Shown piece by piece: positions 6,753 to 41,557 of a stretch of 64,000 nt of DNA. The DNA is taken from positions 1,632,001 to 1,696,000 of the forward strand of contig CM000152.2 of NCBI GenBank assembly GCA_000004695.1, read 5' to 3'. Every line of letters begins with the position of its first letter. Position 1 is the first letter of the stretch. Made by a program: the position numbers and the translations under genes. Source of the stretch: Dictyostelium discoideum (Eukaryota). The notes below the pieces were generated by a model. The model saw only the letters and a list, made by a program, of their open reading frames with translations. It was not told where the DNA came from and searched no databases.

Positions 6753-6887
6753 AATAAACCTTCATTGTATAGAAAAAATAAAAATAAAAAAAAAATAAAA
6801 ATAAAAATTAAATCTATCTTTTTTTTTTTTTTTTATTATTACTTGTTTTATTATTATTATTATTAAACGAAATCCTTTTTAATTATT

Positions 6888-10613
<3,726 letters not shown>

Positions 10614-10948
10614 TATTACTTAAAAAAAGAAAAAAAAGTAATATTATTATATGTTACTAATAAATTTAAATAAACAAAATAAAAAAAACAAAAAAAAAAA
10701 AAAAAAAAAAGAAAAAAATTAAAAAAAAAAAAAAAAAATTCACTTTTCTTGGAAATTTGATGATTTTTAAATTCTAAAAATAAATCTTAAAATTATTTTT
10801 TGAAATTTAGAAATGTTTAAATATGGTTTTTTTTTTTTTTTTTAGATAATTTTTTTTTTATTTTTTTTTTAAATTTTTTTTTTTTTATTTTTTTTTTTTT
10901 AAAATTATATATTTTTTAATTTGTTTTTTTTTTTTTTTTGTTTTAAAT

Positions 10949-13602
10949 TTAATTATTAACAACTAAAGAATTATTTTGTCTCTTTTTGTGAGATTTTTGT
11001 TGATTGCTATTGTGATGTTTTTTATTTTGATATTGTTGGTTACCTTGATTTTGATTTTGGTGGTGATGGTGATGATGTTGAGTGGTTTGTTGTTGTTGTT
11101 GATGATGTTGTTGTTGTTGTTGATTGTGGTGATGATGGCCGTGGTGTTGATGACCATGATGTTGGTGACCATGATGTTGACCACCAGCGATTGGTAAGTG
11201 ATCATTATCACCCTTCTTTCTGTAGGAGGTACCAAATTTAACATCGTAAATACGTTCATTTTGTTCGACAAAATCAACTAAAGATTCAGAGTAATGAAGA
11301 GCAAGATATTGGAGTTTAGTTTGTTCAGCACGGAAAGTGATTGATTCGGTAGAGTGTTCCATTGAGGCAGAGATTTCGTGATTATTCATCATTTTGGCGA
11401 CGATAGAGTGAACTTGACTCTTTGGTAAATGGAAACGATCGGCCAATTCACTGAGGAGGATACTATCGTAAGAAGTGGAATAAGTGAAGAGGAAAGTCTT
11501 TAAGGAGACCTCTTGAACGATACGAGTGAGTTTTTCACGAACACTGTCAATGTCTGGGATGAGGGACCAGAAACGAAGGGTGTTGACATGTTCGAGACAT
11601 TGTTGCCAGTCACCAGCGGATAAGGCTTTGCTAGCTTGATAGATGATATCTTTTGAGGTTTCGGATGGGGCAATAAAGATTTGACGATCGACACTATCCA
11701 TATGACGTTGATAGAATTTACAAGTTTTGAATTTGTTATCGAATGGACGATAGGCATTTTGTGGAACTGCGATTAACATACCAGAGATGAGATTAACGGT
11801 TTCAATCAAATCGATTGGAATCCACATATGAGCAGGAAGGATACGAGTGGTCTCTTCAACCTCTCTAACGGTATCTTTTTCAGCGGTTTTGCTTTGAACT
11901 GATAAACCTTGAGCCAAAAGATCCTTACGAAGACCAGAGAATTCGACGACACAATTTTGAGCCTCTTGAATGTAACCACAACGGAAAGCACAAAGACCCA
12001 ATTGAACCATAGCACGATTGAAAAGGATTTGAGTTGAAACATCCATGAGTGTTGGATTATCTTGGAGATGAGACATGAGCATCATATCACGAGCTTCATG
12101 GAATTTGTTATTGATGGCATTGAAGTAGATGTTACAAAGAATGGTACGAGCATTGAGACGTTCATCACCAAATTTATAGACAAAAGATGAGAGTTTACTC
12201 ATCAAGGTAATTTGCTCACTCAATGGCATTGTGCTTGGGATGATATTGTTTTTGAGATTACTTGATTTGTAGTAGATATGTTCGATACGACGAATGGCAA
12301 TCTTTGCGGCGGCGCCATTGTTACCTGCAGACTCGTAATACTTTTGAAGTGATTCACCCAAGTCTAAGATGATTTGTTCGTCTTGTAAACGATCTAAATA
12401 CTCTTTGGTTGGATAGTTGATTGATTGAAGTGACTTTGAGAATTCGTCATCCAACATTTCGAATAAAGCTAAAAGATTACCAGTTACTGCTACTTGACCC
12501 TTGCTGATGGTTGGTTCTTGGTGTTCGAGAACCAAGACAAAGTTGGTATTGGTCTCCAAGATCTCCAATAACTTTTTGATGCCATCGGCAACCTTTTGCC
12601 AAACTGGAATGGAGAGAGCAACCTTTACAGATGCAGTATCGAATTGAGCGGCAATCAATTCATAGAGTACAATAAAGGTCTCCTTATCGCCTTGGATTAA
12701 ACTGTAAAAATATTCAAGTTGTTGAATTTGTTTCATTGGGTCAGTCTTTAATTTACCTCTGTTGGAGATGACTTCTTTAACTTTCTTCATGATTTGGTCT
12801 TGAGTCAATTTCTCGCCTTCACCCTCACCGGCGGTTGGAACGGCACTGCCACTTCCACTGAGTGGTGAGACTACAGCATTTCTACGATCCAATTTATCCT
12901 TATCGGTCTTTCTCACGGTGGTAACTGAAGCTTTGGCTACAACCTTTTTATCGTCTTTAATCATCCATTTGTTATCGCCAGAGTCGTCATCACTGTCACT
13001 GTCAGAGTCGTCATCACTATCGGATGACCATGACTCTGAGATCAATTCTTCACTCTCTGATTCAGATTCTTCACTCTCTGACTCACTATCGTCATCACCT
13101 TTTTTGGTTAATGGTTTCTTTGCAACTACAGCTTTGGTGGCTGGTTTCTTACCAAATGCAGCTTTACCTTTACCTTTACCTTTATCATCATCTGATGATT
13201 CACTCTCTTCAGACTCAGATTCACTTAAATCGTCATCATCATCATCACTGTTGGCTTTGTTCTCTTGTTCATTCACCAATGCTGGATTATCATGATATGG
13301 TTTCAATTCCTTTGCATAGAGATCACATGTTTTCTTTAACTTTTGTTTGATTGAATTGTATGATTTATTATTATTTGCATGTAATTTCTTTTTTTGTTCT
13401 GTTGTTAAATCTCTATGACTTGTTTGAATAATAAATAATGCTTTAATAAATGATGGTGGGAAACCTTCTTTTTCAATAATTCTAGTTGTTTTACCATTTG
13501 TAATTAATTTTGTCATATTATCAAATTCTAAATATAATAAATAATAATAATAATAATAATAAAATATGTTAATATATTTTATGTGTGTTTGTGTGTGTTA
13601 AT

Positions 13603-28010: not shown

Positions 28011-28469
28011 ATGACAAGTAAATATAGGTGCCAGCATGATAAATTTTCGTTAAAACAATTAAAAAAAAGAGGATTCAGTCTTTACCTTGATGAATTATTT
28101 GACAAAGATGAGTTTCCAAATATTGGCTACTGTACCGAGGAATGTAAAGAAAAAATGAAAGAGATTTATAGGATAACCTTTGAACAATATCTCGAAATAA
28201 TAAATAAATATTACAATGATAGCAGAATTTTTGATTATAACTTAGAAAACAACCCTGAAGAATGTGATCTTTGGATGTATCGAGAATTTTTAAGTGCTCG
28301 ACCCCCCCTCTCACCTCAAGATGAATATGCTAGAATGGCAATAAAAGCAATGAAAGTTGGTATTCAAGATGGAAAGCCTGTTAGATTATGTGAATTGCAG
28401 CCTGGTGTACAATGTGATTTCGATGCAACAAACCTACCTGGCTCTGAAGAAGATGAAAGAGAAAAATAA
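28011..28469 (+). CDS. Hypothetical 152-aa protein with atypical (GC-richer) codon usage
   Basis: Clean ORF MTSKYRCQHDKFSLKQLKKRGFS...CELQPGVQCDFDATNLPGSEEDEREK. It uses codons that are rare in Dictyostelium (AGG, CTC, GGC, GCC, the run CCCCCCC). It lies between an AT-rich promoter-like region and the poly(A) end of the TRE element. Confidence 0.4.
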   Translation: MTSKYRCQHDKFSLKQLKKRGFSLYLDELFDKDEFPNIGYCTEECKEKMKEIYRITFEQYLEIINKYYNDSRIFDYNLENNPEECDLWMYREFLSARPPLSPQDEYARMAIKAMKVGIQDGKPVRLCELQPGVQCDFDATNLPGSEEDEREK

Positions 28470-28744: not shown

Positions 28745-31700
28745 GTTTTTTTTTTTTTTTTTTTTTTGATATAAATAAACTATTGTAGTATACAATTAGT
28801 ATGTTATTTTTATTTATTTATTTAAGGTTTTTTAGTTTTTGTGAATTTAAAATGGTATGTTATTTTAGATTAGGTAATTAATAATTAATTGGTGGTGTAA
28901 TTGTTGGAATTGGTTCATTTGTGTTTATGCTCCATTCTTTTTTAAATTTTTTGATGGTTTCGGACCATTGGGTTTCTTTTTGAGTTTTTGTGAGGTTGTT
29001 TTTAATTGAGTATTGGTTAAAGTTGATAATGTTCTTGAATATTCCAATCTTATTAGCCTGTGCCATTTTGATTTTAATATATCATAATCTAGTGTTGTGT
29101 TGTTTATTTGGTTGTTCCAATTTTCAATTGATTGAGTTATATTGATGTCAAATAATGATTTGCATAACCATATCCATATTTGGTGAATAACTAATGAGAT
29201 TATGTTCCAATATGCATGTGTTCTGACTAGATCAAGATTTGTGTTTATATAATTCCAGTTGAACTTGTATTTTTTATATTGTGCGTTTTCTGCAAAATGA
29301 AAATTAATATTGATAGTTGGATCTGGTTTAAATGCTTTGTTGTTTGTTTGTGGTTTATAAATGAGTGTGTATAATTTTGTTGTTTGGTTTTTTGTTAGTG
29401 ACCAGTTTTTGTTTCCATTGCAATTTTTATATATAAAATATTTTAATTTGTCGTAGTTTATGAAGTTGATTGTGTGCTGACAATTGAAAAACAAATGACC
29501 ATAGGGATCATTATTCATTTCATTGTTGCAAATGGGGCAAACTTTGTTGTGTAGATGATTAATCGGAAGACATCTAGCATGGAATCTTTGCATTGTATCA
29601 CGGCCTTTTGGATCTTTTAATTTTTGAATTTTGACAAATAGTTGGTCGTATGTGTATTTCCATAATAGTTGTATTGATTGTTGGTGCGAAGTAAGAAGTA
29701 GATCTGAATATTTCTTGCCAATATAGTCTTTTGATTTACATTGGTGATTGTTGAGTATTGTCGAGTAGATTTCTTTGAGTGTTGGTGGTAGTGAAATATT
29801 ATTTGTGTTTAATGTTTGAGAGGTTTGATTTTTTATTAATATTGGTTGTAGGATTTGAACTTTATCTTTTAGATGTCCAATTTGAGTTGCATAGTTTTCC
29901 CATTCTTTTTTGATTTTTATAAGGTATGGAGAAGAGATTGATTTGTTGATGATTTGATCCATCCAACTTATCATGTATAGTGAATTGTTTGCAGATTTAT
30001 GCATTTGTAAAAATCTGTTGTATATCCAAATCTTTTGAGCAACTTGTCGTAATTGTATATTCCACATACCCCAACCACCTTCTTTTAATGGTTTTAACGA
30101 TCTATCATAACACATCAAAGGTATTTTTGCACGTGATTGGATGGTTGATGTGTTTTTTTCAATGGAATTGGTATCGAGAGTTGGTGATTCAGAATTTGCG
30201 GGAGAATTCATAAACCATGAGATTAATTTATTAATTTGAATTTCTTCATCTTTTGTAAATTCTTCAAGGAATGATAAATATGTTATTGGTGATAGTGAGT
30301 AGGTGTTTATGATGGTTGTTTTTGTTTTTAATGTTGTTCCACTAGTTTTCCATAGTACTAATGATTTAATCAGTGTTTTCATTGTTTCTGGTAATTTCCT
30401 ATGTAAACCATTATGATTAAAGAAATAGCCAAGGACTCTTTCTGATTGATCTTTTTTGGTTATTGGTATTCTTTTTGATTGTGGAATGTTGTTTATTATG
30501 TGTTTATCAGTGATTTTGTGGGGGTTGATTTCTATTATTGCACTTTTGTCAAAATTTAATGATGATGATGTTGAAGCGCAGAAATTATCGAAATGTTTGA
30601 TTGATTGTTGTTGTTGTTCGTAGTTGATGTTGTAGGTTGTAGAGTCGTCTGCAAATTGGGTAAATTTGATTTTAATTTGTGGATTGGGTGAAATTGGTAA
30701 TCCAATTATTGTATTGTCTGCATTTATTGTTCTTGCTAATATTTCAATTACAATTACAAATAAAGTGGCTGAGATTGGGTCACCTTGTTTTACACCTCTT
30801 TTAATATCGAATTTTCTGGTCGTTTTACCATTAATTAAAATTTTTGCTTGTGAGTCAGATAATAGCTTGTGGATTAAATTTATTAATTTTATTGGTATAC
30901 CAATATGAATTAATGTTCTTTTAATACTATCGTGAGAGATAGAATCAAATGCTTTAAATAAGTCAAATAGTGTGATGATACCAGGGAGGTTTTTAGATTT
31001 GAGGTAGTTGATTAATTCATTGATGTTGATGATGTTGTCTATGATGAATCTGTGGGGTACGAAACCAGTTTGGTTGTTGTTGATGAAAGGAAGTATTCTC
31101 AGAAGACGTGTATTGATTACTTTTGAGAGGATCTTGTAATCAGTGTTTAGAAGTGTAATGGGAAGACGATTTGATATGAGTAAGGGGTTGCCTTTCTTGT
31201 ATATTGTGTGTATAAGACCTTCGGTGAATTCTGTTGTGATGTGGTGAGGATTTTCTAGTATATCGTTGAATAATGTAGTGAGAATTGGTTTAACTTGGTT
31301 TAAATGATTAATGTAGAATGCATTTGTAATGCCATCTGGACCGGTGATTTGTTGGGGTTACAGGTTTTAATTGCAGCTTCAACTTCATCTTGTATAAATG
31401 GTGAGTCTAAACCATTCCAATTTTCATTTTTTATGATGGGCCATGTGTTTAGCATGAGCTGGTGAGTAATTGGACAACATATTTGTAAGCTATACAGATT
31501 TGTGTAGAATTCAACAAACGCATTTTCAATTTGGTCGGGGTCGGATGTAATGATGTTACCATATTGGATTGATTCAATTTTTGCATCTTTTGATCTTTTG
31601 TTTAGTATTGCTGATAGATACTTACTAGGTATTTCTCCATTTATATGTTTTTTTAATATGTTTGTGTGGTTTTGATGTAATTTGTTTTTGTTACATATAA

Positions 31701-33955
31701 TATTGTATTCAGCAATGCATTGTTCTTCAAGATGTTTGAATTTTGCTGCTTTTTCTAATAGAATTTGTTTTGCACGTTGAGTTTGTTTGTCTTTATTATA
31801 TTGATAGTTTTTTAGAGTTTTAATAATTTTTGATTTTACTTTTGACCAATTTGTAAATTGATTGATTGATGTGTTATTGTGATTAATTATTAAATGATTG
31901 ATAATATTGATTGCTTCATGGTCATTTGCAGTACCAGGTGATAATATCCATCTTTTCTTATGTTTATTTATTTGAAAAGGTGAAGAAATTGTTGTTGATA
32001 CTGGATTATGATCTGATAATGAAGATGGAATTTGGTGGACTTGTGTATATATATTTTCAGGGTCTATTCTATTGTATTGAGTATATATTCTATCTAATCT
32101 GTTGCCATGTGTATGAGTTGGAGTGTTTTTAAATTCACCTTGATCAATTAGATGGTGTTGGTATGTGTAGGATTGGATAATATCGTCTAATAGTGAATTG
32201 TCGTTGTGGATACAGTTGAAATCTCCTGCGATAATAGATACATGTTGGGATTGGTTTGGTATTGGGTTTGTTGAGTGGTTGTGGATAAGTGTTTGTAGTG
32301 AAGTTGCATATGAATTCTTTTTGATGGTATTATTAGATGCTGGTGCGTAAATTCCAAGAATACCAATTGGTAATTGATTTGGAAATATAACGTCTGCTAA
32401 AATAGCTCTACCATCAATTGTTGATATGTGTTTGAGTTTGAGTGTGTTTGGGTTATGGTTAATGATTATTACACCATTTCCTCGTTTGGTGACAGAGATG
32501 ATGTGATCGGGAAAATCATGTTTAAGTTGTAATGGTGATGAATTGAGTTCAGTGAGTATTGAGATTGTTGGACGAGGTGGAAGTTTTGATATAAGTAGTT
32601 GTAGTGTGTCAACAGCTTTTTGGTAGGAATTGTGTTGATTGTTTGGGTTTTCAGTGAATCCTCTACAATTCCATGTTATAAAGTTGATTTTTGAGCTCAT
32701 ACCTTACTAGGTTTGGCAGCACCAGTATTGACTGGTTGTGCTGCTTCTTCTTGTATTTATTGTATTTGGAGTTGATGCACTTGGTTTGTTTGGTTGAGAT
32801 TGTAGAGGTTTTTGTGGTACAATTGTTGGATCGGTTGGATTGCTCATTGATAATGAGTTTTCCCGTTATTATTATTTGAAGAATCACTTTTGTTTTGGGA
32901 TTGATTGGTAATATCAAGTGATTCATTTTGTGTAGCTTTTGAACCACTATTTTGAGGTGGGTTATTATTGCGATTGGAATTTGCAATTTCGTTGATTGGT
33001 GGGGTGTTAATGTTGTTTTTTGGTGGTTGATTGTTTTTGTTCATGTTTGGGTTTGTGATAGCATTTTTTATAGTTGTTGCCATATCTGCATTTTTTGCAT
33101 GTTGAATTTTGTGTTTAGTGACACTACGTGTTGCAGCTTTGATATATCTTGTGATAACAGATGGTTGTTCGATCTTTTGATCAACAATGTTGTGTGTGTG
33201 ATCAATTAGATATGTTATAATGTAGCTTTTAAACGCAACAGCATATGAGTATGTGACAGTAAATGATTCAATTGATGTACAACTGGTGAATTTAGTGAGG
33301 TTGTTTGTAATTGCATCGTTTGCATGTTTGGGTGAGTACGTTTTAATGAATGTTTTAATGATTGCATAATCATTTGATGATATATCGAATCTATAGTTGA
33401 GTTTGTCGATATTTAGTGCAAGTTAGTTTTGAAGGTTATTATTGAAGTTAATTTATCAACGTTGCAATTTACGAAGGCAGTTGCACCAATTATTTTGAAT
33501 GCTGATGGCGACAGTATATCTTCGAAGAGTTTGTGAATGTTTTTGTGAATTTGTTGAATTCTTGTGTCATCTTTAGAGGTTAATTCTTCACGGATGTGTG
33601 GTTGATTAAAGTAACACTTAATGTTGATGGTGTTATTGTTTTTTTCTAAGAAAGAGAGTGGTCTTGTGATTGATGGAGGTGCAATGATATCTAATTGATT
33701 ATCAAGTCCTTTGTTTAGTGAGAGTTGGTTTGTTGGGGTTTGTTTTTTAGGTGTGTCGATTTTTGCACTTTTGTTTTTTGTTGTTGAGGTTGTGGAGGTA
33801 TTATTTGTATTGGTTGTGTTGTTATCTGTATGATTTAACTGTAATTCAGTTGAGTGATCATCAGCCATTGTTGAAATGTATATAGGACGATAGCCCTTGC
33901 TTTATTGAGCAAAAAAGGGAAAAATTAAGAGGAATGAATGTGGCGGTGAAGATAT
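28745..33955 (-). mobile_element. TRE3-type (tRNA-gene-targeted) non-LTR retrotransposon, copy 1, degenerate
   Basis: The element's 3' poly(A) is seen on the plus strand as a T23 run at 28745-28767. The ORF2 C-terminus with a CCHC-like zinc knuckle (CPICNNEMNNDPYGHLFFNCQHT) is at 28925..30382, the RT region is frameshifted at ~30400-31300, and the APE endonuclease domain is at 31300..32700 (ITWNCRGF...IIAGDFNCIH...SDHNPV). ORF1 (33413..33868) is truncated, with a frameshifted upstream continuation. The 5' end abuts the poly(A) of copy 2. Confidence 0.7.
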
Positions 33956-33976
33956 AACAGTGATTTATTTATTATA

Positions 33977-33984
33977 TGTATAAA

Positions 33985-34016
<32 letters not shown>

Positions 34017-37000
34017 TGGATTAACAAGATTGATATATGTCCATCTGTGTTAATACGAGTTTTTATATAATATTTATTTATAGGCTTATCATTTAAGCTG
34101 AAGGGTTATTTTAATCATATGAATTGATCAAAAGATATAATATTTGGGAGAGATGATTCTGGAATACAATAGTAATTAGCTGTTGTTTTTCTTAGCTTGA
34201 TCGTTGAGGTGAGAAGGATCTTAGGATCTTTGAAATTATTATGGTCTTTTGCTGATAAGTTTTTCAGATCTTTTGCTTTTTTGATGTATTCTAGAATGGC
34301 CAATTTGTGCCATTTCTTTAGAAGGAGCTGTATGATAGTGATTCATTTGTTAAAGGATCTTCACTGTATATTTGATTGCAAATCCAAATCCAAATGTTGT
34401 GGAGGATAAGGGCCATTAGGTTTCTATATGCGAATGATCTGGTTAGATCATAGTCTATTGCTTTATAGTTCCATTCAAAGTATTCTTTGTGGAATCTGTG
34501 GTTGGCGTAATCTGCATTCACTTCTTGATCTTTTTTGGCTGTCGGTGATAATTTTGGAGTTATTCTATTAATGAAATTGTTATTTTGCCTAATTCTTGTA
34601 TGGTGCCAGTTTTTACCTTTGCCTGTGGTAATATAGATGAAAATTTTTGAGTTTATTTATTTTTATGAAATGTTTTGTTTTCTTGCATGAGAAGAACAGG
34701 GTGACCGTATGGGTCTTTGCTCATATCTTCTTTGCAGAGTGGGCATTGTTTGTTGTGAAGGTAGTTTATTGGAAGGCATCTGGCATGGAATCTAAACATT
34801 GTGTCTCTTGTTTTAGGGTCTTTTATTTTCAGTATGTTGTTGAAGAGTTGATTATAGCTGTAGCCTCTTAAGTTTAGAGATGATTGGAATTCCGTTTTAG
34901 GGATGGTTGGATTTTGGTCTTGAATTGTGGTATACCATTCTGCCAGTGAAAGTGGTTGTCCATTTTCGTTTTTTATGGATGTGAGATTATTGTTGAAGAT
35001 TGCTTTTTTTATTCTTATTTTGTTCCATTCGTCTAAGTTTTCTTTTAGGTATCTGGATGTGAATTTGTTTTTTTGGATCTGATATTCCCAGCTTTTGTGA
35101 TGAGATGAGTTTGTTTGTTTGGTTTCTAGTGCTAGGATGAACTGGTTTATGATCCAAAGTTTCTGCGCCAGTTGTCTCAATTCTATATTCCAAATGTTCC
35201 AGCCCCCTACTTTTAGTGGGTATCTTGCTCTTTTGGTTCTCATTAAATTAATAACTTGAAATCCACTAGCATTTTGTTGTGTTGGTGCGAATAAAAACCC
35301 ATTTGCAAATAATTAATTGATTTGGTTTAAATTCCTCTTCCTTAAAGTTCTTCTACATATGAATAGTGGGTTAATTTAGAGGAGTGCGAAGGCTTTTAGG
35401 GATGTTGGTTTTGGTTTTGATTGTTGAGTCAGTGGTTTTCCAAAGTACTAAGGATGATTTTATTGTGTTTAATATTTCTGGTATTTTTCCTGTTATCCCT
35501 TGCCCTGTGAAGAAGTATCCCAAGTATCTTTCTGGATTTGTAGATATTGGAATTCTTTGGTTGGTATTGTCTGGGTTGCCTATAAGAATTGATGAAGATT
35601 TGTCGATGTTTAGTTTTGAGGAAGTGGCTTTGCAAAATGAATTGAAGTGTTGTAGTACTAATTCAAGTTGTTGAGAGTCTGGGACCATTGAAGCCGAGTC
35701 GTCTGCAAAGCTTTGGAATTTCTCTCTGTGGTCGCTGTTGTTTAGAGGAAGGCCAGTAATTCGGTCATCTTGTAAAATTTTTCTAGCTAAAGCCTCTATT
35801 ACAAGGACGAACAGGGTGGGTGATAGTGGATCTCCTTGTTTAACTCCTCTTTTGATCTCAAAGGGTATAGTAGTTCTACCATTAATTTCAATTCTTGCTT
35901 CAGATTTGGTGAGTAGATTCATTATCAGGTTGATTATATTGGTTGGAATGTTGATGTGTTGTAGTGATCTGAGTATTGAACCGTGTGAAATCGAGTCAAA
36001 AGCTTTTTCGAAATCATATAGTGTAATTATTCCGTTAATTCTTTTATCATTACAATAGTTGATTAATTCGTTCATTGATATGATATTATCTATAATGAAT
36101 CTGCCTGGTACGAAACCTTTTTGATTGTGGTTGATCACTTTCGTTAGTATTGGGATTATTCTATTGTTTATTAGTTTTGAGTGGATTTTATATATACAGT
36201 TAGCCAGTGTAATTGGTCTTCTGTTTTTGATTAGTTCGGGGTCTCCCTTTTTAGGTATCGTGATAATGAGGCCTTCTTTGTAATTTTTGCTAATTAGATG
36301 AGGATTTCTTAGAGTGTCGTTGAATGCTGAGGCCAGTATTGGAGCTAGTTTTTCTTTGTGTGTTATGTAGAATAAGTTTGGAATTCCATCTGGGCCTGGA
36401 GATTTGTGTGGGTTCAATTGTTTTATTACTTCTAGGATCTCTTGTGTTGTGAATTCATTTTCAAGGTTGTCCCATGTTGAGTCCCTGGTCACTGTCCAAT
36501 TTTCCAACATTTCATAATGAGATGGTGGGTCATCTTCTTTGTAGTCATAAAGATTTGAGTAATATTTTACGTATTCTTCTTCGATCAATTCCTGTTTGTT
36601 GATTGTTCTACCTTGTGCATCTTTTACTGCGTTGATGGTGAAATCATTGTGTCTTTTCTTGATTCTCGCGGAGATGTACTTGAGTGAGGTTTCTTCGCAA
36701 TAGTTGTTCAATTCTTGTTTAAGTTGTTCTTCTCTTTTTTTAGATTCATTTATTGCTGAAAGGGTTGCGAAGGCTTGGTCTTTAAATTCTGTCTCTAGTA
36801 GGGAGATTAGATTTTTGATGTTTGCCTTATTGTTGTAGTCATTTTGTTTTTGAAATTCTGTGTATAGTTGTTTTATTTTGTTTAGTAAGCTGTTGAGTTG
36901 AGAGAAGGAAATAGAGTTATGGTTGGATGACAGCTCCCTTGAATAATCGTTAAGTAGGAAGTCTATTTTCTTAAGCATTATGCTTGAGAGGATTGAGGAT

Positions 37001-39240
37001 TTTTTTAATCTCCATCTGCGCTTGTTCATCTGTATGTTGGGTAGAGTGAAGGTGGTTGATAGGAAGTTGTGATCTGATAGAGGTATGTCATTAATTTTTG
37101 GGGGGATTAGGTTCCTTAAGTATAATTGGCTGTAGTTGATTATGCTATTGTTAAGGTATATTCTGTCTAGTCTCCTTTCCAAGATTCTTGTGAGGTTATT
37201 GTTTGTGTTGTGTATCGTTCTTGAGAAGGTGGGTCTTTTATTTAGTTGGTCCATATCCATTAGGTTATTTGAAATTCTGATGGCTTCGATTACTGTGGCC
37301 ATCTCATCTGGGGATTGTGTTGTCAAGTTGCCTTGGTCATCATTTGATGTGTGATTGTCATTGAAGTCTAAACAGTTGAAGTCGCCTGCTATGATGTCAA
37401 TGTTTTTATTAGGGTTAGACGTTAGGTTGTGGTATTGGTTGTTGAAGTGTTTGTTTAGTGTTGAAGCTAGTGTTTTTCTTTTATCAGGTTGGGCCGGGGC
37501 GTATATGGCCAAGATTCTCGTTGTGGTATCTTTTATTAGAATGTCTGATATTATTAGTCTACCTTCTATTATGAATATTGGTGAGAGTTTTATGTTTTGG
37601 TTGTTGTGGTTTAGTATTCCTATTCCGTTGCCTCTTTTGGTTGCGCTAATGATGGAGCCAGGGAATAGCTGGTGTGCTTGTGTTGCGTCGGCGTTGAGTT
37701 CATTGACTATGGTTAGTGCCAATGAGTTTGGGGGGGATTGGGATTTGATAAAGTCTGTTTTGTTTTTGAAGGAGGTGTCAGTGCCCCAACCTCTGACATT
37801 CCATTGGTTGATTTTGATTACTACTATTATGAGATGATATCGATCTCCTCTTGGGAGTCGTATAGCTGCGGTTTGGATGGTGAAGGGTAGATACTCTCTA
37901 TGAAGCTCTCAATGATTCCTTTCCTTTCTTTTTTGACAGGTGTCTTAGGGGTGGATGGGATGTAAGGGTTGCTTCTGTTTATTGTTGGTGAGAGTTGGGT
38001 GACTTCATTGTTTGAGTGGATTTCCTCGTTCTTGCGTTTATGTGATGGAGGGATGTTTAGTGTCTTCTCTCTGTTTTCCGAGGATGAATGGATGTTAGTG
38101 CTTGTTTTGTTGGCATTGTCTTTTTGGATGGCGTTGGATGTTGTGGTAGTGGTTGTGGTGGGTTTGACAGATTGAGATTCTGCTGGGTTTTTGGGGGGAA
38201 GAGGTTGAGATGACTTTTTTGCTTGGGCTTTTTTCTCTTGTGTTGATTGTTTATCAGACTGATTGTTTGCTGAGTTGTTTGTTTGTTGTTGTGGTTTTGG
38301 TTGAGAGGATTTGATTGCTATCCTGTTTTGAGTGTTAGGAGGATCTGTCATCTCATCTTCTAATGGTTCCTCCGTGTTGGTTGTCTCTACTTTCTTGTTT
38401 TTCTTTTGTGAGGAGTAGGTTTTGGGGGCCGTTCTGATGGTAAAGTTTGCGATTTCTGTAATGTGTTGGCCATATTTCATTTGATCGCCTATTTTGCATT
38501 CTATTAGACCGAATACTATGAGGTGGTCGGTGGAGTATATAGTATTGTATATTGCATAGGGTATTTCTTCTGCAAAGGCAGTTTTGATGAGGGCGTCCAC
38601 TATTCCTGCCTTTTCTCTGGGAATTCTTACTCTTCCTGAGAGGACGCGGAAGTCTCTACTGGAGGAGATGAAGGTTCCCAATTTGCTTCTATCTCTAATG
38701 ATATTTAGGAGAGATTGTTCGTTTTTAATCATCAGGTGGATCATTTTTCTAGTTCCTTTGCCTATGTATATCTTGTCGATTGGGATATCGTAGTTTGAGA
38801 GTGTTTTTCTCATTTCTTCTAACCCCTTGAGATCCATTTTGGGGAATTCGAGTGTAATTGGGTAGAATCCGTTGTTCTTCTCGTAGGTTGAGAGCGCAGT
38901 CATGTTCAATATGGTCTCGCAGTATTTGGAGATGTCTTTGAGGCCTATTGATAGTTTGGGGTAAGTTTCCTTTATCTCTGCTGTTTTTGTGGAGAATTCC
39001 TTAATGAAGTTCTCCGATGCCTCGTCCATATGGGTGGAGGGGTTGGCCATTTTAGCCGCGTCTGCGTAGGAATTCATCTCGATGGGATTCCTTTGAATCG
39101 GCGATTTGGTAAGTTAGATCTGTAGATCGTGGTGGATTGGTGATTTTTTTCGAAAGATTGGTTAAAATTGACCGAGATTAAGGATAGAAAAGGATGAATT
39201 ACTTTTCACGTGTATCTTGTATCCTCTTGATAGCGGTACG
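33977..39240 (-). mobile_element. TRE3-type non-LTR retrotransposon, copy 2 (different subfamily from copy 1), with an internal deletion/frameshift in the ORF2 3' part
   Basis: Intact-looking ORF1 at 37827..39077 (416 aa). ORF2 35371..37722 carries the APE domain (IIAGDFNCLD...SDHNF) and RT motifs (GDPLSPTLFVLVIEAL; FADD). The ORF2 C-terminus with CPLCKEDMSKDPYGH is in another frame (34653..35243) and 3'-truncated. The poly(A) tail is the T29 run at 33977-34005. The 5' end is ~90 bp downstream of the tRNA-Cys 3' end, consistent with TRE3 targeting. Confidence 0.7.
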
Positions 39241-39327
39241 GTTTTTTTTTTTTTTTTTTGTTAGTATCTATGTGTTTTTGTCCATCTGTTTGTTTTGGAG
39301 GTCTATAAAAAACAAAAATAACAAAAA

Positions 39328-39399
39328 TTAAAATGAAAGTTCCGAACCAGGATTGAACTGGCGACCTAACGATTTGCAGTCGCTTGCTCTTCCACTGAG
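39328..39399 (-). tRNA. tRNA-Cys (anticodon GCA)
   Basis: The minus strand reads GTTTCGATAGCTCAGTGGAAGAGCAAGCGACTGCAAATCGTTAGGTCGCCAGTTCAATCCTGGTTCGGAAC. Acceptor stem GTTTCGA/TCGGAAC gives 7 pairs including one G-U. D-arm GCTC-AGTGGAA-GAGC. Anticodon stem AGCGA/TCGTT with loop CTGCAAA (GCA = Cys). T-arm with TTCAATC loop. T-runs follow downstream (pol III terminator). Confidence 0.85.
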
Positions 39400-39587
39400 C
39401 TATCGAAACTTGTTGAAATTTTTGGATTAATAGCCAATTTTGGCCGTTTTTTATCGCAGGATCGAATCCATGCATGGTCAATTTTAATTCCTCTTTTATT
39501 TAAACAAACTAAACTGTAGACAGATGGAAGTTAAATTAATTTTTAATTTATTTATACTTTTATTTTTTTTTAATTTAAAAAGTAATT

Positions 39588-40244: not shown

Positions 40245-40279
<35 letters not shown>

Positions 40280-40696
40280 ATAATAATAATAATAAAATAA
40301 TAATAAACAAAAAAACAGAAATAAAAAAATAAATAAAAAAAAAAAAAAAAAAAAACAATTGTATATTTAAGATTATTAAGGATATTACTAAAGTTACTCA
40401 CATTTTTAAGTTTTAAAGAGAAAGAAGAAGATAAAAAAAAAAAATGATATCACGATTGTCGTTTTAAAATGTTAGGATTTTTTTAATTTTATTTAATTTT
40501 TTTTTTTTTTTTTTTTTTTAAAATAATATTTTTAAAATATCATTTTTTTTTTTTTTTTTTTTCCTTTCCTTTTTCTTTGTGTGTCAAAATATATAAATTA
40601 AACTCTTTTTTAAAGAGAATTATAATATAATAATAATAATAATAATAATACCAATACCAATACCAATACTAATATAATAATAAACATAGTAATAAA

Positions 40697-41557
40697 ATGA
40701 CAGATAGACAACCATTAATTTCAAAAAATGATGATATTATTAATAATCTCACAAGATTCTATACTGAATTAACCGAATTTGAAAAGATTATAAAGGATGT
40801 TGGTACAGGTCGTGACACAACTACATTAAGAAGTACACTTCATAAAAAAAAGGTTAATTTAGCAGATGATTTAAAAGTTATTGCACAACAAATTAAACAA
40901 TTACCATCATCAAAATTACCAAAATTCCAACAAGAAAAAATCGTTAAACAATTTAAAGAAGCTTCTTCAAAATTTGAAGAATTATTATCAACCTCAAATA
41001 AAAAAGAATCATCACATGAACCAATTGTACCAAGTCAACAACAACAACAACAACAAAATAATGGTAATAGTAATAATAATGGATATAATACAAGAGGTGG
41101 ATATAATCAACAGCAACAACAACAACAACAACAATATAATGATTACACTAATAATAATAATAATAATAATAATAATGAAGTTGAACAATATAATAGATTA
41201 GAACAAGCATTAAAATCAGGTATTGAGCAAGATGAAGAAGAATATACAAATCGTATTCTTGATGAAAGAAATGCAAATGCAAGACAAATTGCAAGAGATG
41301 TTGCAATGTTAAAAGAAGCAATGGATGATATTGCTGTTATGGTTGGTGAACAAGGTGAAATGTTAGAAAAAGTTGATGACAATGTTACAAATGCTGATGT
41401 TGCTGTCGAAGATGCTGTTGTAGAATTAGAAAAAGCATACGTTTATAAATCATCATACAGAAAGAAAATGATCATTTTCGTTATTTGTTTATTAGTTACT
41501 CTTGTCGCCGTTGGTATATTTTTAGCAATTTACTATGGTGTAATAAAGAAAAAATAA
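40697..41557 (+). CDS. Syntaxin (Qa-SNARE, syntaxin-7/Pep12-like), 286 aa
   Basis: Habc-like N-terminus, then a t-SNARE homology domain ARQIARDVAMLKEAMDDIAVMVGEQGEMLEKVDDNVTNADVAVEDAVVELEKA containing the Q residue, then a C-terminal TM IIFVICLLVTLVAVGIFLAIYY. A Q/N-rich linker sits between them. Confidence 0.8.
   Translation: MTDRQPLISKNDDIINNLTRFYTELTEFEKIIKDVGTGRDTTTLRSTLHKKKVNLADDLKVIAQQIKQLPSSKLPKFQQEKIVKQFKEASSKFEELLSTSNKKESSHEPIVPSQQQQQQQNNGNSNNNGYNTRGGYNQQQQQQQQQYNDYTNNNNNNNNNEVEQYNRLEQALKSGIEQDEEEYTNRILDERNANARQIARDVAMLKEAMDDIAVMVGEQGEMLEKVDDNVTNADVAVEDAVVELEKAYVYKSSYRKKMIIFVICLLVTLVAVGIFLAIYYGVIKKK

Follow-up and report, generated by a model that had tools for sequence, protein, structure and literature searches.

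A TRE3-type retrotransposon tandem downstream of a tRNA-Cys gene of Dictyostelium discoideum, with a hybrid tRNA-proximal copy

Which elements are stacked behind the tRNA-Cys(GCA) gene on chromosome 3 of Dictyostelium discoideum AX4, and does the reference sequence give their number correctly? The question is raised by a window of 64,000 nucleotides (GenBank assembly GCA_000004695.1, contig CM000152.2, positions 1,632,001 to 1,696,000 of the forward strand), in which a minus-strand tRNA-Cys(GCA) gene is followed by two non-LTR retrotransposons, arranged head to tail and oriented like the tRNA gene (Table 1). A pair of TRE3 elements is an ordinary, already annotated feature of a known kind: the elements, their targeting downstream of tRNA genes and their tandems were described between 1999 and 2016, and for the ORF1 copy present here a gene number already exists in AX4. 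What is new is confined to the tRNA-proximal element: it merges two copies that a more recent assembly of a near-identical strain keeps apart.

Table 1. Features of the locus, in window positions
Feature	Position	Strand	Remarks
tRNA-Cys(GCA) gene	39337-39410	-	internal B box AGTTCAATCC; ARAGORN and sequence
Native spacer 3' of tRNA	39260-39336	-	77 nt; T4-T6 runs (Pol III terminators)
Proximal element, full length, TRE3-A type	33985-39259	-	5230-nt body, 5' A18 and A27 tail
A18 at proximal 5' end	39242-39259	-	own 5' oligo(A) and probably target-duplicated As
Proximal element body	34012-39241	-	between A18 and A27
Proximal ORF1	37827-39077	-	416 aa; AX4 annotation DDB_G0279153 starts at a downstream Met
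Proximal ORF2 open frame	35374-37908	-	845 codons, APE and RT; FADD at 35698-35709
Crossover interval	37144-37222	-	79 nt, over which 2a and 2b do not differ; switch from 2b-like to 2a-like
Cluster of 28 private differences	35276-35503	-	base swaps and 1-3-nt insertions; ends ORF2 frame; resembles base-calling error
Private 1-nt insertions (34701, 34643) and substitution (34670)	34643-34701	-	relative to full-length copies
A27 poly(A) tail of proximal element	33985-34011	-	adjoins distal element directly
Distal element, fits TRE3-B	28746-33984	-	5217-nt body and A22 tail
Distal ORF1	32666-33901	-	split over three frames; deletions of 1, 3, 18, 1 and 14 nt
APE part of distal ORF2	31303-32703	-	Pfam Exo_endo_phos, E=1e-13
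RT and zinc-knuckle part of distal ORF2	28928-31357	-	810 open codons; RVT_1, E=6e-31; FADD at 30644-30655
A22 poly(A) tail of distal element	28746-28767	-	then unique flank (CCAATTTCGATTTTGAC...)

Layout of the array and type of its elements

The tRNA-Cys(GCA) gene, which drew the insertions as their Pol III target, is the sole tRNA detected by ARAGORN in the whole window. The initial annotation had recognized this gene about 10 nt away from its actual position (at 39328-39399) and had correctly described two same-orientation, head-to-tail elements beside it: the two elements share the minus strand with the tRNA gene, and the distal copy starts (33984) right where the poly(A) tail of the proximal one ends (33985). 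The distance of ~90 bp proposed between the tRNA 3' end and the proximal element was a fair estimate, as the A-run is reached after 77 nt and the first non-A base after 95 nt. An external B box was not found in the intervening spacer, where the best match was 5/11.

The proximal element, ~98% identical to active copies, aligns from end to end with five full-length copies at other loci (L001-L005), each time as a single HSP (5267-5292 nt, ~98% identity). The deletion between about 34520 and 34650 formerly ascribed to it is thus absent, and what was taken for a deletion are the two frame-breaking 1-nt insertions at 34701 and 34643, which interrupt the frame just past the first three CCHC ligands (CPLCKEDMSKDPYGH, 34701-34745). 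No Pfam domain was found in the 416-aa ORF1, which from residue 59 to residue 416 matches DDB_G0279153 of D. discoideum AX4 with 100% identity. With respect to ORF1, ORF2 is in frame -1, with a 79-nt overlap, and in intact type-A copies its frame comprises 1261 codons. The RT is matched by Pfam RVT_1 (E=4e-34); for the APE of this type the match is weak, 18.6 bits being less than the gathering score, and the full profile is spanned in an intact consensus copy. From a structural perspective ORF2 is L1-like, human L1 ORF2p being the top match among solved structures (E=2.7e-50, RT region).

The distal element does not have ~35 nt of the family 5' end (A-run, CCG, AAAACAAAGAAATAAACGAGAA) and carries eight small deletions, five of which are called frameshifting. 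Its ORF1, previously reported as a truncated 151-aa protein, is not simply truncated: reading resumes in other frames past the deletions (1 nt at element position 547, 1 nt at 1123 and 14 nt at 1244), and an intact 413-codon version of this ORF1 type is present at another locus (L007). In ORF2, the RT and APE frames are separated by the loss of 1 nt at ~2640 of the element (~31345 of the window); the copy is therefore frameshifted, as had been stated, both in ORF1 and at the APE/RT boundary. A CCHC motif (C-x2-C-x10-H-x4-C) is found at 29480-29539. Pfam Exo_endo_phos (E=1e-13) and RVT_1 (E=6e-31) are both found in the distal copy.

The two ORF1s are unrelated (BLASTP E>1), and identity is 30% in the APE and 45.5% in the RT-ZF region, in agreement with the earlier view that the copies belong to different subfamilies. 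TRE3 elements integrate on the downstream side of tRNA genes, at a distance of ~100 bp (14-305 bp in the published ranges; PMC5006619 Table 1), and in the same transcriptional orientation as the tRNA gene (PMC5911963), this downstream insertion being their defining behaviour (PMC5006619, PMC5911963). Type-A copies at six other loci begin 61-157 nt past the tRNA gene and the heads of type-B copies at three loci lie ~50-70 nt from it, always in the same orientation, with tRNA and element both on the plus strand at all reference loci. The reference copies have 8-11-nt target-site duplications (TSDs), and tandem arrays occur also at L004 and L005. Taken whole, the array is very probably a TRE3 tandem downstream of tRNA-Cys, and the downstream position, shared orientation and non-LTR structure bear out the TRE3-type pair that had been proposed.

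Membership in some other tRNA-associated family (TRE5, the LTR elements Skipper-2/DGLT or an NLTR-type element) is extremely improbable. In fact, TRE5 is oriented opposite to the tRNA gene, upstream of which it inserts at ~50 bp (PMC5911963), and has modular A/B/C UTRs, whereas the present locus and nine others have their elements downstream and oriented like the tRNA; within the two elements no TRE5-like internal module duplication was detected. Likewise, neither LTRs, inverted repeats or long direct repeats nor Pfam matches to integrase (rve) or RNase H were found in the elements, against Skipper-2/DGLT-A, and at the C-terminus there is a CCHC zinc knuckle where NLTR elements have an RNase H.

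Within TRE3, the proximal element is likely TRE3-A and the distal one TRE3-B, as judged from length, copy number and the -1 frameshift in published descriptions. Published lengths are 5229 for TRE3-A and 5279 for TRE3-B (PMC5006619 Table 1); type A measures 5224 nt plus A7, that is 5231, and type B, of which no intact reference copy was found, can be reconstructed at ~5.29 kb (5217 nt, ~43 nt of deletions and ~35 nt of missing head). More than 50 sequences belong to the ORF1 family of type A, and among the genomic copies of this type four are 100% identical to one another, which fits the most active family; TRE3-B is the second most abundant TRE3. The database matches all bear the title 'hypothetical protein'. 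Among the other candidates for the distal element, TRE3-C (4734 nt) was ruled out by length only, and TRE3-D was also excluded.

The proximal copy is a hybrid of two tandem elements

The cross-strain comparison, for which an empty site had been envisaged, was run on the near-isogenic long-read assembly GCA_054883475.1, whose strain is probably AX2-214, and yielded at the orthologous locus not an empty site but three elements, versus two in the window. The distal element is identical over 5217/5217 positions, the flanks are nearly identical, and the outer junctions of the window array are those of the three-element locus. The other two elements are tandem type-A copies, here called 2a and 2b, which are 98.3% identical. 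The proximal copy of the window consists of the first 2 kb of 2b followed by the last 3.2 kb of 2a: diagnostic sites are of 2b type in 61/61 cases and then of 2a type in 30/30, the last 2b-type site being at element position 2019 and the first 2a-type site at 2099.

In GCA_054883475.1 both ORF1 and ORF2 of 2b are intact. The junction between 2b and 2a reads A20-CTAAC-A13-CCG, and the sequence upstream of 2b is GATACTAAC-A18-CCG, so that CTAAC(A)n is found on both flanks of 2b; the search for TSDs thus succeeded for this copy, and neither 2a nor the distal copy shows one. With respect to the active consensus, identity is 98.2% for 2b and 99.2% for 2a. The lower value of 2b would be unexpected for the youngest copy, unless it derives from a different source lineage (CCGTACCGCT heads, also in L004).

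The hybrid further carries 37 error-like differences that are private to the window, each found in 0/7 other DNA copies (2a, 2b and five more). Six private amino-acid changes in ORF1 are likewise absent from the other compared ORF1 proteins, with two exceptions: the AX4 annotation of the locus itself and, at one site, one D. citrinum protein.

The A18 tract at the 5' end, initially placed one base off (39241-39258), had been attributed either to the tail of a deleted earlier insertion or to a target-site feature. Full-length copies carry A-runs of their own at this end: in all eleven type-A heads examined, CCG is immediately preceded by an initial A-run, of A5-A13 in ten heads and of A18 here. 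The target-site explanation is correct in part, in that the extra As probably stem from a duplication of the target, which was the A-run of 2a, the older copy; the tract would be unusually long because the 2b insertion duplicated CTAAC and several As. That A18 is instead the leftover poly(A) of an earlier insertion between the tRNA and the proximal copy, later deleted or extremely 5'-truncated, is very unlikely. An 11-mer of the spacer (ACAGATGGACA) is also found ~40 nt ahead of the TRE3-A tail, and a very short head-plus-tail mini-element is known at another locus (L008). However, the resemblance of the spacer to TRE ends is not above chance, the score against TRE3-A 3' and TRE3-B 5' ends being reached by 46/500, 109/500 and 212/500 shuffles; the spacer motif was found at none of the loci retrieved; and the A-runs of all eleven heads, together with the CTAAC(A)n duplication of the three-element locus, account for the tract and its extra length.

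Collapse or contraction, and a possible history of the array

The difference between two and three elements is probably an assembly collapse in the Sanger-era AX4 reference. The 37 private differences stand in a background otherwise identical over tens of kb, and their confinement to the hybrid points to poor sequence or assembly quality exactly here. Tandem 5.2-kb copies as similar as 2a and 2b are a classic substrate of collapse for Sanger shotgun assembly. Alternatively, the hybrid could be real if a 5.26-kb unit was removed in the AX3/AX4 lineage, after its split from the lineage of GCA_054883475.1, by single-strand annealing or unequal homologous recombination of 2b with 2a. One clean switch inside a 79-nt identical interval and the match of both outer junctions with the three-element locus would agree with such an event, and TE-mediated rearrangements among D. 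discoideum laboratory stocks are documented (PMC2643946, PMC12745789); the private error-like differences speak against it, and we consider this alternative possible but doubtful. A single clean crossover is equally expected from real recombination. It would be, with the same modest probability, a very recent contraction of a TRE3-A tandem during the few decades of laboratory propagation between AX4 and the strain of GCA_054883475.1, and, if true, a directly dated turnover, in a haploid genome, of a retrotransposon array next to a tRNA gene.

The array may have grown by repeated target-primed reverse transcription (TPRT) into the zone ~50-160 nt past one tRNA-Cys(GCA) gene, the newest copy being nearest to the tRNA, with targeting that, according to the literature, would operate via the Pol III complex. 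A TRE3-B-type element would have landed first, and is now old, with five frameshifting deletions. The TRE3-A-type copy 2a would then have entered between it and the tRNA, its tail abutting the older element at position ~36 of the latter. As no TSD is visible for 2a or the distal copy, these two steps are reconstructions. A second TRE3-A, 2b, would have inserted at the junction between the spacer and the 2a A-run, duplicating CTAAC and several As, and in the window sequence 2b and 2a appear as one hybrid, joined within the 79-nt identical stretch. Younger insertions ahead of the distal element have brought its distance from the tRNA to 5.35 kb.

For genome curation, the AX4 chromosome 3 reference probably under-represents this array, with two elements instead of three, and the ~37 probable sequence errors make a likely intact TRE3-A (2b) appear defective in AX4. 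Consequently, copy-number and intact-element counts based on AX4 may be biased for tandem TREs.

Comparison with known systems

TRE3-A, formerly Tdd-3, is an L1-clade non-LTR retrotransposon of D. discoideum. The element family shares with human LINE-1 ORF2p the layout of APE, RT and C-terminal cysteine-rich region, as well as the TPRT mechanism; human LINE-1 differs in having no tRNA-gene targeting and an unrelated ORF1 protein. The proximal element resembles TRE3-A in its position 77 nt past the tRNA gene and in the same orientation, in having two ORFs, the second in frame -1, in the order APE-RT-zinc knuckle followed by a poly(A) tail, in length (5231 versus the published 5229 nt) and in abundance, its family being the commonest and including several identical copies; it departs from TRE3-A in being a 2b/2a hybrid with private frame-breaking differences and a 5' A18, where A7-A13 is usual. 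The distal type resembles TRE3-B in a head made of an A-run and then CCG, in an ORF1 of ~400 aa that has no relationship to the TRE3-A one, a property already published for TRE ORF1s, in an ORF2 30-45% identical to that of TRE3-A and in its length (~5.29 kb versus 5279); the window copy deviates by the missing ~35 nt of 5' end, the eight small deletions and the 5.35 kb from the tRNA. Tandems of TREs at tRNA genes have been explicitly described (Spaller et al., 2016; PMC5006619 supplement, Table S2 note), and the present array differs from them in nothing essential, except that its length is two in one and three in the other of two near-isogenic assemblies.

The tRNA-Cys array and its base composition

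The two retrotransposons are stacked 3' of the tRNA-Cys(GCA) gene, as the initial annotation had described; re-mapping shifted the A18 tract and the end of the array by 1 nt and the tRNA gene by about 10 nt. No external B box was found in the spacer, which puts the insertion zone about 90-100 nt past the internal B box. The block at 28.7-39.3 kb has a GC content of 29-41%, the flanking 10 kb having roughly 12-31%, and, unlike the flanks, it shows a strong strand skew. In both elements the sense strand is strongly enriched in A and C (29000-39000), with plus-strand GC and AT skews of +0.24 to +0.48 and -0.22 to -0.43, respectively. Between a GFA-domain gene and a syntaxin-like gene, the intergenic DNA contains about 110 nt of A-rich sequence (40246-40355; period 1, 72% matches).

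Features of the array and of its orthologous locus (window positions unless stated otherwise; deletions of the distal element are called relative to other type-B copies and given as element positions)
Feature	Position	Strand	Remarks
tRNA-Cys(GCA)	39337-39410	minus	ARAGORN; sole tRNA gene in the window
Spacer 3' of tRNA-Cys, 77 nt		minus	T4-T6 runs
A18 tract	39242-39259	minus	
Proximal element, body, 5230 nt	39241-34012	minus	3' end AATATT
Proximal element, A27 tail	34011-33985	minus	
Distal element, 5217 nt	33984-28768	minus	adjoins the A27 tail directly; 3' end TATATC
Distal element, A22 tail	28767-28746	minus	unique flank beyond
Distal 5' UTR deletion	69		1 nt
Distal ORF1 deletions	547, 773, 1091, 1123, 1244		1, 3, 18, 1 and 14 nt, respectively
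Distal ORF2 deletions	~2640, ~2900, 4960		1, 3 and 1 nt, respectively
Private substitutions, six	38380-38666		all nonsynonymous
Private cluster of 28	35276-35503		adjacent-base swaps, 1-3-nt insertions
Private two 1-nt insertions and a substitution	34643-34701		
Three-element locus	CM142509.1, about 1,741,900-1,758,200		GCA_054883475.1

Two element families

The proximal element, here called type A, matched five full-length copies of the assembly GCA_054883475.1 (loci L001-L005) in one HSP each, of 5267-5292 nt and about 98% identity. Four of these copies (L002-L005, each at about 6837-12060), located at different tRNA genes, share their 5224 nt at 100% identity, and the copy of L001 is 99.98% identical to this set. 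The identity of the four points to a single source copy that retrotransposed very recently, and thus to a family active very recently. Two lineages of type-A heads can be told apart, CCGCACCGCG (active) and CCGTACCGC[T/G]. In the intact consensus, ORF1 (417 aa) is devoid of Pfam domains and ORF2 (1261 codons) lies in the -1 frame, overlaps ORF1 by 79 nt and contains the motif C-x2-C-x10-H-x4-C, together with a weak but full-length match to Exo_endo_phos and a strong one to RVT_1 (E=1e-33). Neither LTRs nor inverted (terminal) repeats were found in the elements. The 5224-nt body and the usual A7 head amount to 5231 nt, the published length of Dd_TRE3-A being 5229 nt (PMC5006619 Table 1), and a -1 frameshift into ORF2 has been reported for TRE3-A (PMC5911963). 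From length, frameshift and abundance, the proximal element is likely a TRE3-A. Its ORF1 (37827-39077, 416 aa) matches Dictyostelium proteins only and, judging from the 100% identity of residues 59-416 to DDB_G0279153 of D. discoideum AX4, is this already numbered gene, which identifies the window as chromosome 3 of the AX4 reference. An exact-sequence look-up of the window's own ORF1 returned no record, and the protein database matches to the elements were all labelled 'hypothetical protein'.

The distal element (type B) is related to type A at the nucleotide level in parts of ORF2 only (65-69% identity); the APE region is 30% identical and the RT-ZF region 45.5%, and its ORF1 pieces do not resemble the type-A ORF1 (E>1). 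Other type-B members came from loci L006-L008, reached through ORF2 homologues, and, as a 3' fragment, from L004; they show 93-98% identity, and all of them have internal deletions. In the tRNA-proximal ones the head, A-run-CCG-AAAACAAAGAAATAAACGAGAA-TTTATACAT, stands about 50-70 nt after the tRNA gene; since the distal copy begins at TTTATACAT, about 35 nt of its head are missing. Its ORF1, first described as frameshifted and truncated, is indeed frameshifted but not truncated, and carries multiple small deletions relative to the other copies. The locus L007 keeps an intact type-B ORF1 of 413 codons, followed by ORF2 in the -1 frame. In the distal ORF2, the 1-nt deletion nearest the 5' end separates the APE frame from the RT frame, the latter being open over 810 codons with RVT_1 (E=6e-31), FADD and CCHC. 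The first 325 codons of this frame (28928-31357) hold no ATG, GTG or TTG, so that a start-based ORF listing shows only 485 of the 810. With the deletions and the head added back, type B reaches about 5.29 kb, near the published length of Dd_TRE3-B (5279 nt) and far from that of TRE3-C (4734), and the distal element is by this reckoning likely a TRE3-B.

Some type-B loci show further peculiarities. At L009 (10868-15858), which holds the orthologue of the distal copy, the gene models of GCA_054883475.1 give products of 1173 aa and 334 aa; as the DNA is identical to the frameshifted window copy, these models must span the frameshifts with predicted introns and are annotation artefacts. The copy of L006 is cut off inside ORF2 and runs into a G-rich (GGGGACA)n repeat (12060-12115), unusual for an AT-rich genome. 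At L008 (11990-12090), a 'mini-element' of about 60 nt directly follows a TRE3-B tail; in it, the TRE3-B head (A9-CCGAAACAAAGAAAT) is joined to the 15 terminal nt of the 3' end of TRE3-B and to A20, the outcome of either an extreme internal deletion or template switching.

The position and orientation of both types are specific and fit the published TRE3 definition, about 100 bp (40-150 bp) from the tRNA gene and in its orientation (PMC5006619, PMC5911963). In fact, outside the window a tRNA gene precedes six type-A copies by 61-157 nt and three type-B copies by about 50-70 nt, each copy having the orientation of its tRNA, and the pattern suspected for the window thus holds at nine other copies. 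Type-A tandems are common, L004 and L005 each having a second copy 20-30 nt beyond the first. At L003 (6650-6830), a full-length TRE3-A lies 3' of a tRNA-like sequence (…GGGGGATCGAATCCC…) that was not called by ARAGORN, possibly a tRNA gene that has degenerated or contains an intron; the spacer there contains the B-box-like CTTCGAACTC.

A three-element locus and the hybrid proximal copy

The orthologous locus was found through two ORFs flanking the array, one of 152 aa (28011-28469) and one syntaxin-like (40697-41557), both encoded identically on CM142509.1 of GCA_054883475.1, 5.25 kb further apart. This locus holds three elements, namely the type-A copies 2b (on the tRNA side) and 2a and the distal copy. 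The copies 2a and 2b are 98.3% identical, with 91 differing alignment columns; the window copy equals 2b at 61/61 columns up to element position 2019 and 2a at 30/30 columns from position 2099 on, which places a single switch within 37144-37222. Both outer junctions of this hybrid are those of the three-element locus. Since 2b has its own target-site duplication (TSD) and no single insertion or duplication gives 2a and 2b from the hybrid, the sequences imply that the three-element state must be ancestral.

The distal element is identical between the two assemblies (5217/5217) and nearly all differences in the flanks are indels in low-complexity DNA, one side having 1 mismatch in 9.4 kb, which makes the strains near-isogenic. 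The second assembly, GCA_054883475.1, probably represents AX2-214 (Nanopore plus Illumina, PRJNA1300491), AX2 being the only AX4-like strain of that project (PMC12745789). The hybrid carries 37 private differences. A paralogue origin of these variants was rejected, as none occurs in seven other DNA copies (2a, 2b and five more, a minority of the ~67 in the genome) and none of the six ORF1 changes is shared by the compared ORF1 proteins, except the AX4 annotation of this same locus (P0014) and, at one site, one D. citrinum protein. Their pattern resembles that of base-calling errors made where the Sanger-era reference covered a repeat poorly. It is because of them that ORF2 is split into pieces of 845, 219 and 112 codons; no deletion exists where one had been proposed, the interval holding instead the private pair of insertions and the substitution. 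Near 34326, one more 1-nt deletion comes from 2a, and in 2b of GCA_054883475.1 both ORF1 and ORF2 are intact.

A clean single switch is expected both if the two tandem copies were collapsed in the AX4 assembly and if a real unequal crossover had joined them. Collapse is the reading that we favour, with reasonable though incomplete confidence; a crossover is rather unlikely, and other explanations share the remainder. The proximal copy is a 2b/2a hybrid and, probably, an artefact of the reference assembly.

The A18 tract, a proposed insertion order and known elements

In all full-length type-A heads examined, an A-run (A5, A7, A8, A10, A12, A13) directly precedes CCG[C/T]ACCGC, and the type-B head likewise begins with an A-run and CCG. 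The 5' oligo(A) thus belongs to the element end and is no leftover tail, and the origin of the A18 tract as a residual tail of a lost insertion is not supported. The spacer was also considered as an older-element remnant and rejected, its similarity to TRE3-A 3' ends and TRE3-B 5' ends being within shuffled controls; its motif was absent from the other fetched loci. The orthologous locus, which accounts for the unusual length of A18, reads tRNA…GATACTAAC-A18-[2b]-A20-CTAAC-A13-[2a], with a 2b/2a junction …AATATT-A20-CTAAC-A13-CCGTACCGCG…. The copy 2b would have inserted at the boundary of the spacer and the A-run of 2a, duplicating CTAAC and several As, so that A18 would join duplicated target As, for which the alternative label of target-site feature is apt, to the element's own A-run, for which it is not.

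L1-clade APE-type non-LTR elements integrate by target-primed reverse transcription (TPRT). TSDs of 8-11 nt flank the reference copies, and none was found by inspection for the hybrid, 2a and the distal copy. At L002 (6800-6865), the 5' junction bears a tandem duplication of the initial 29 nt of the TRE3-A head (A8-CCGCACCGCGATCAAGAGGAT), pointing to template jumping or to microhomology-mediated joining of the 5' end in TPRT. The order of insertion would be TRE3-B, then 2a, then 2b, the two type-A copies later being merged in the reference sequence; as the tail of 2a stands in place of the distal copy's first ~35 nt, the second step may have involved a target deletion.

The initial interpretation, a TRE3-type tandem downstream of tRNA-Cys, is correct in its essentials, and for the D. 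discoideum genome such a tandem is textbook material that has already been annotated. A dependence of TRE targeting on the Pol III transcription complex at the B box has been demonstrated for TRE5-A only (PMC5006619). Both elements have the architecture of an L1-clade APE-type non-LTR retrotransposon with poly(A) tails, and the best solved-structure match to the type-A ORF2 is human L1 ORF2p (E=2.7e-50).
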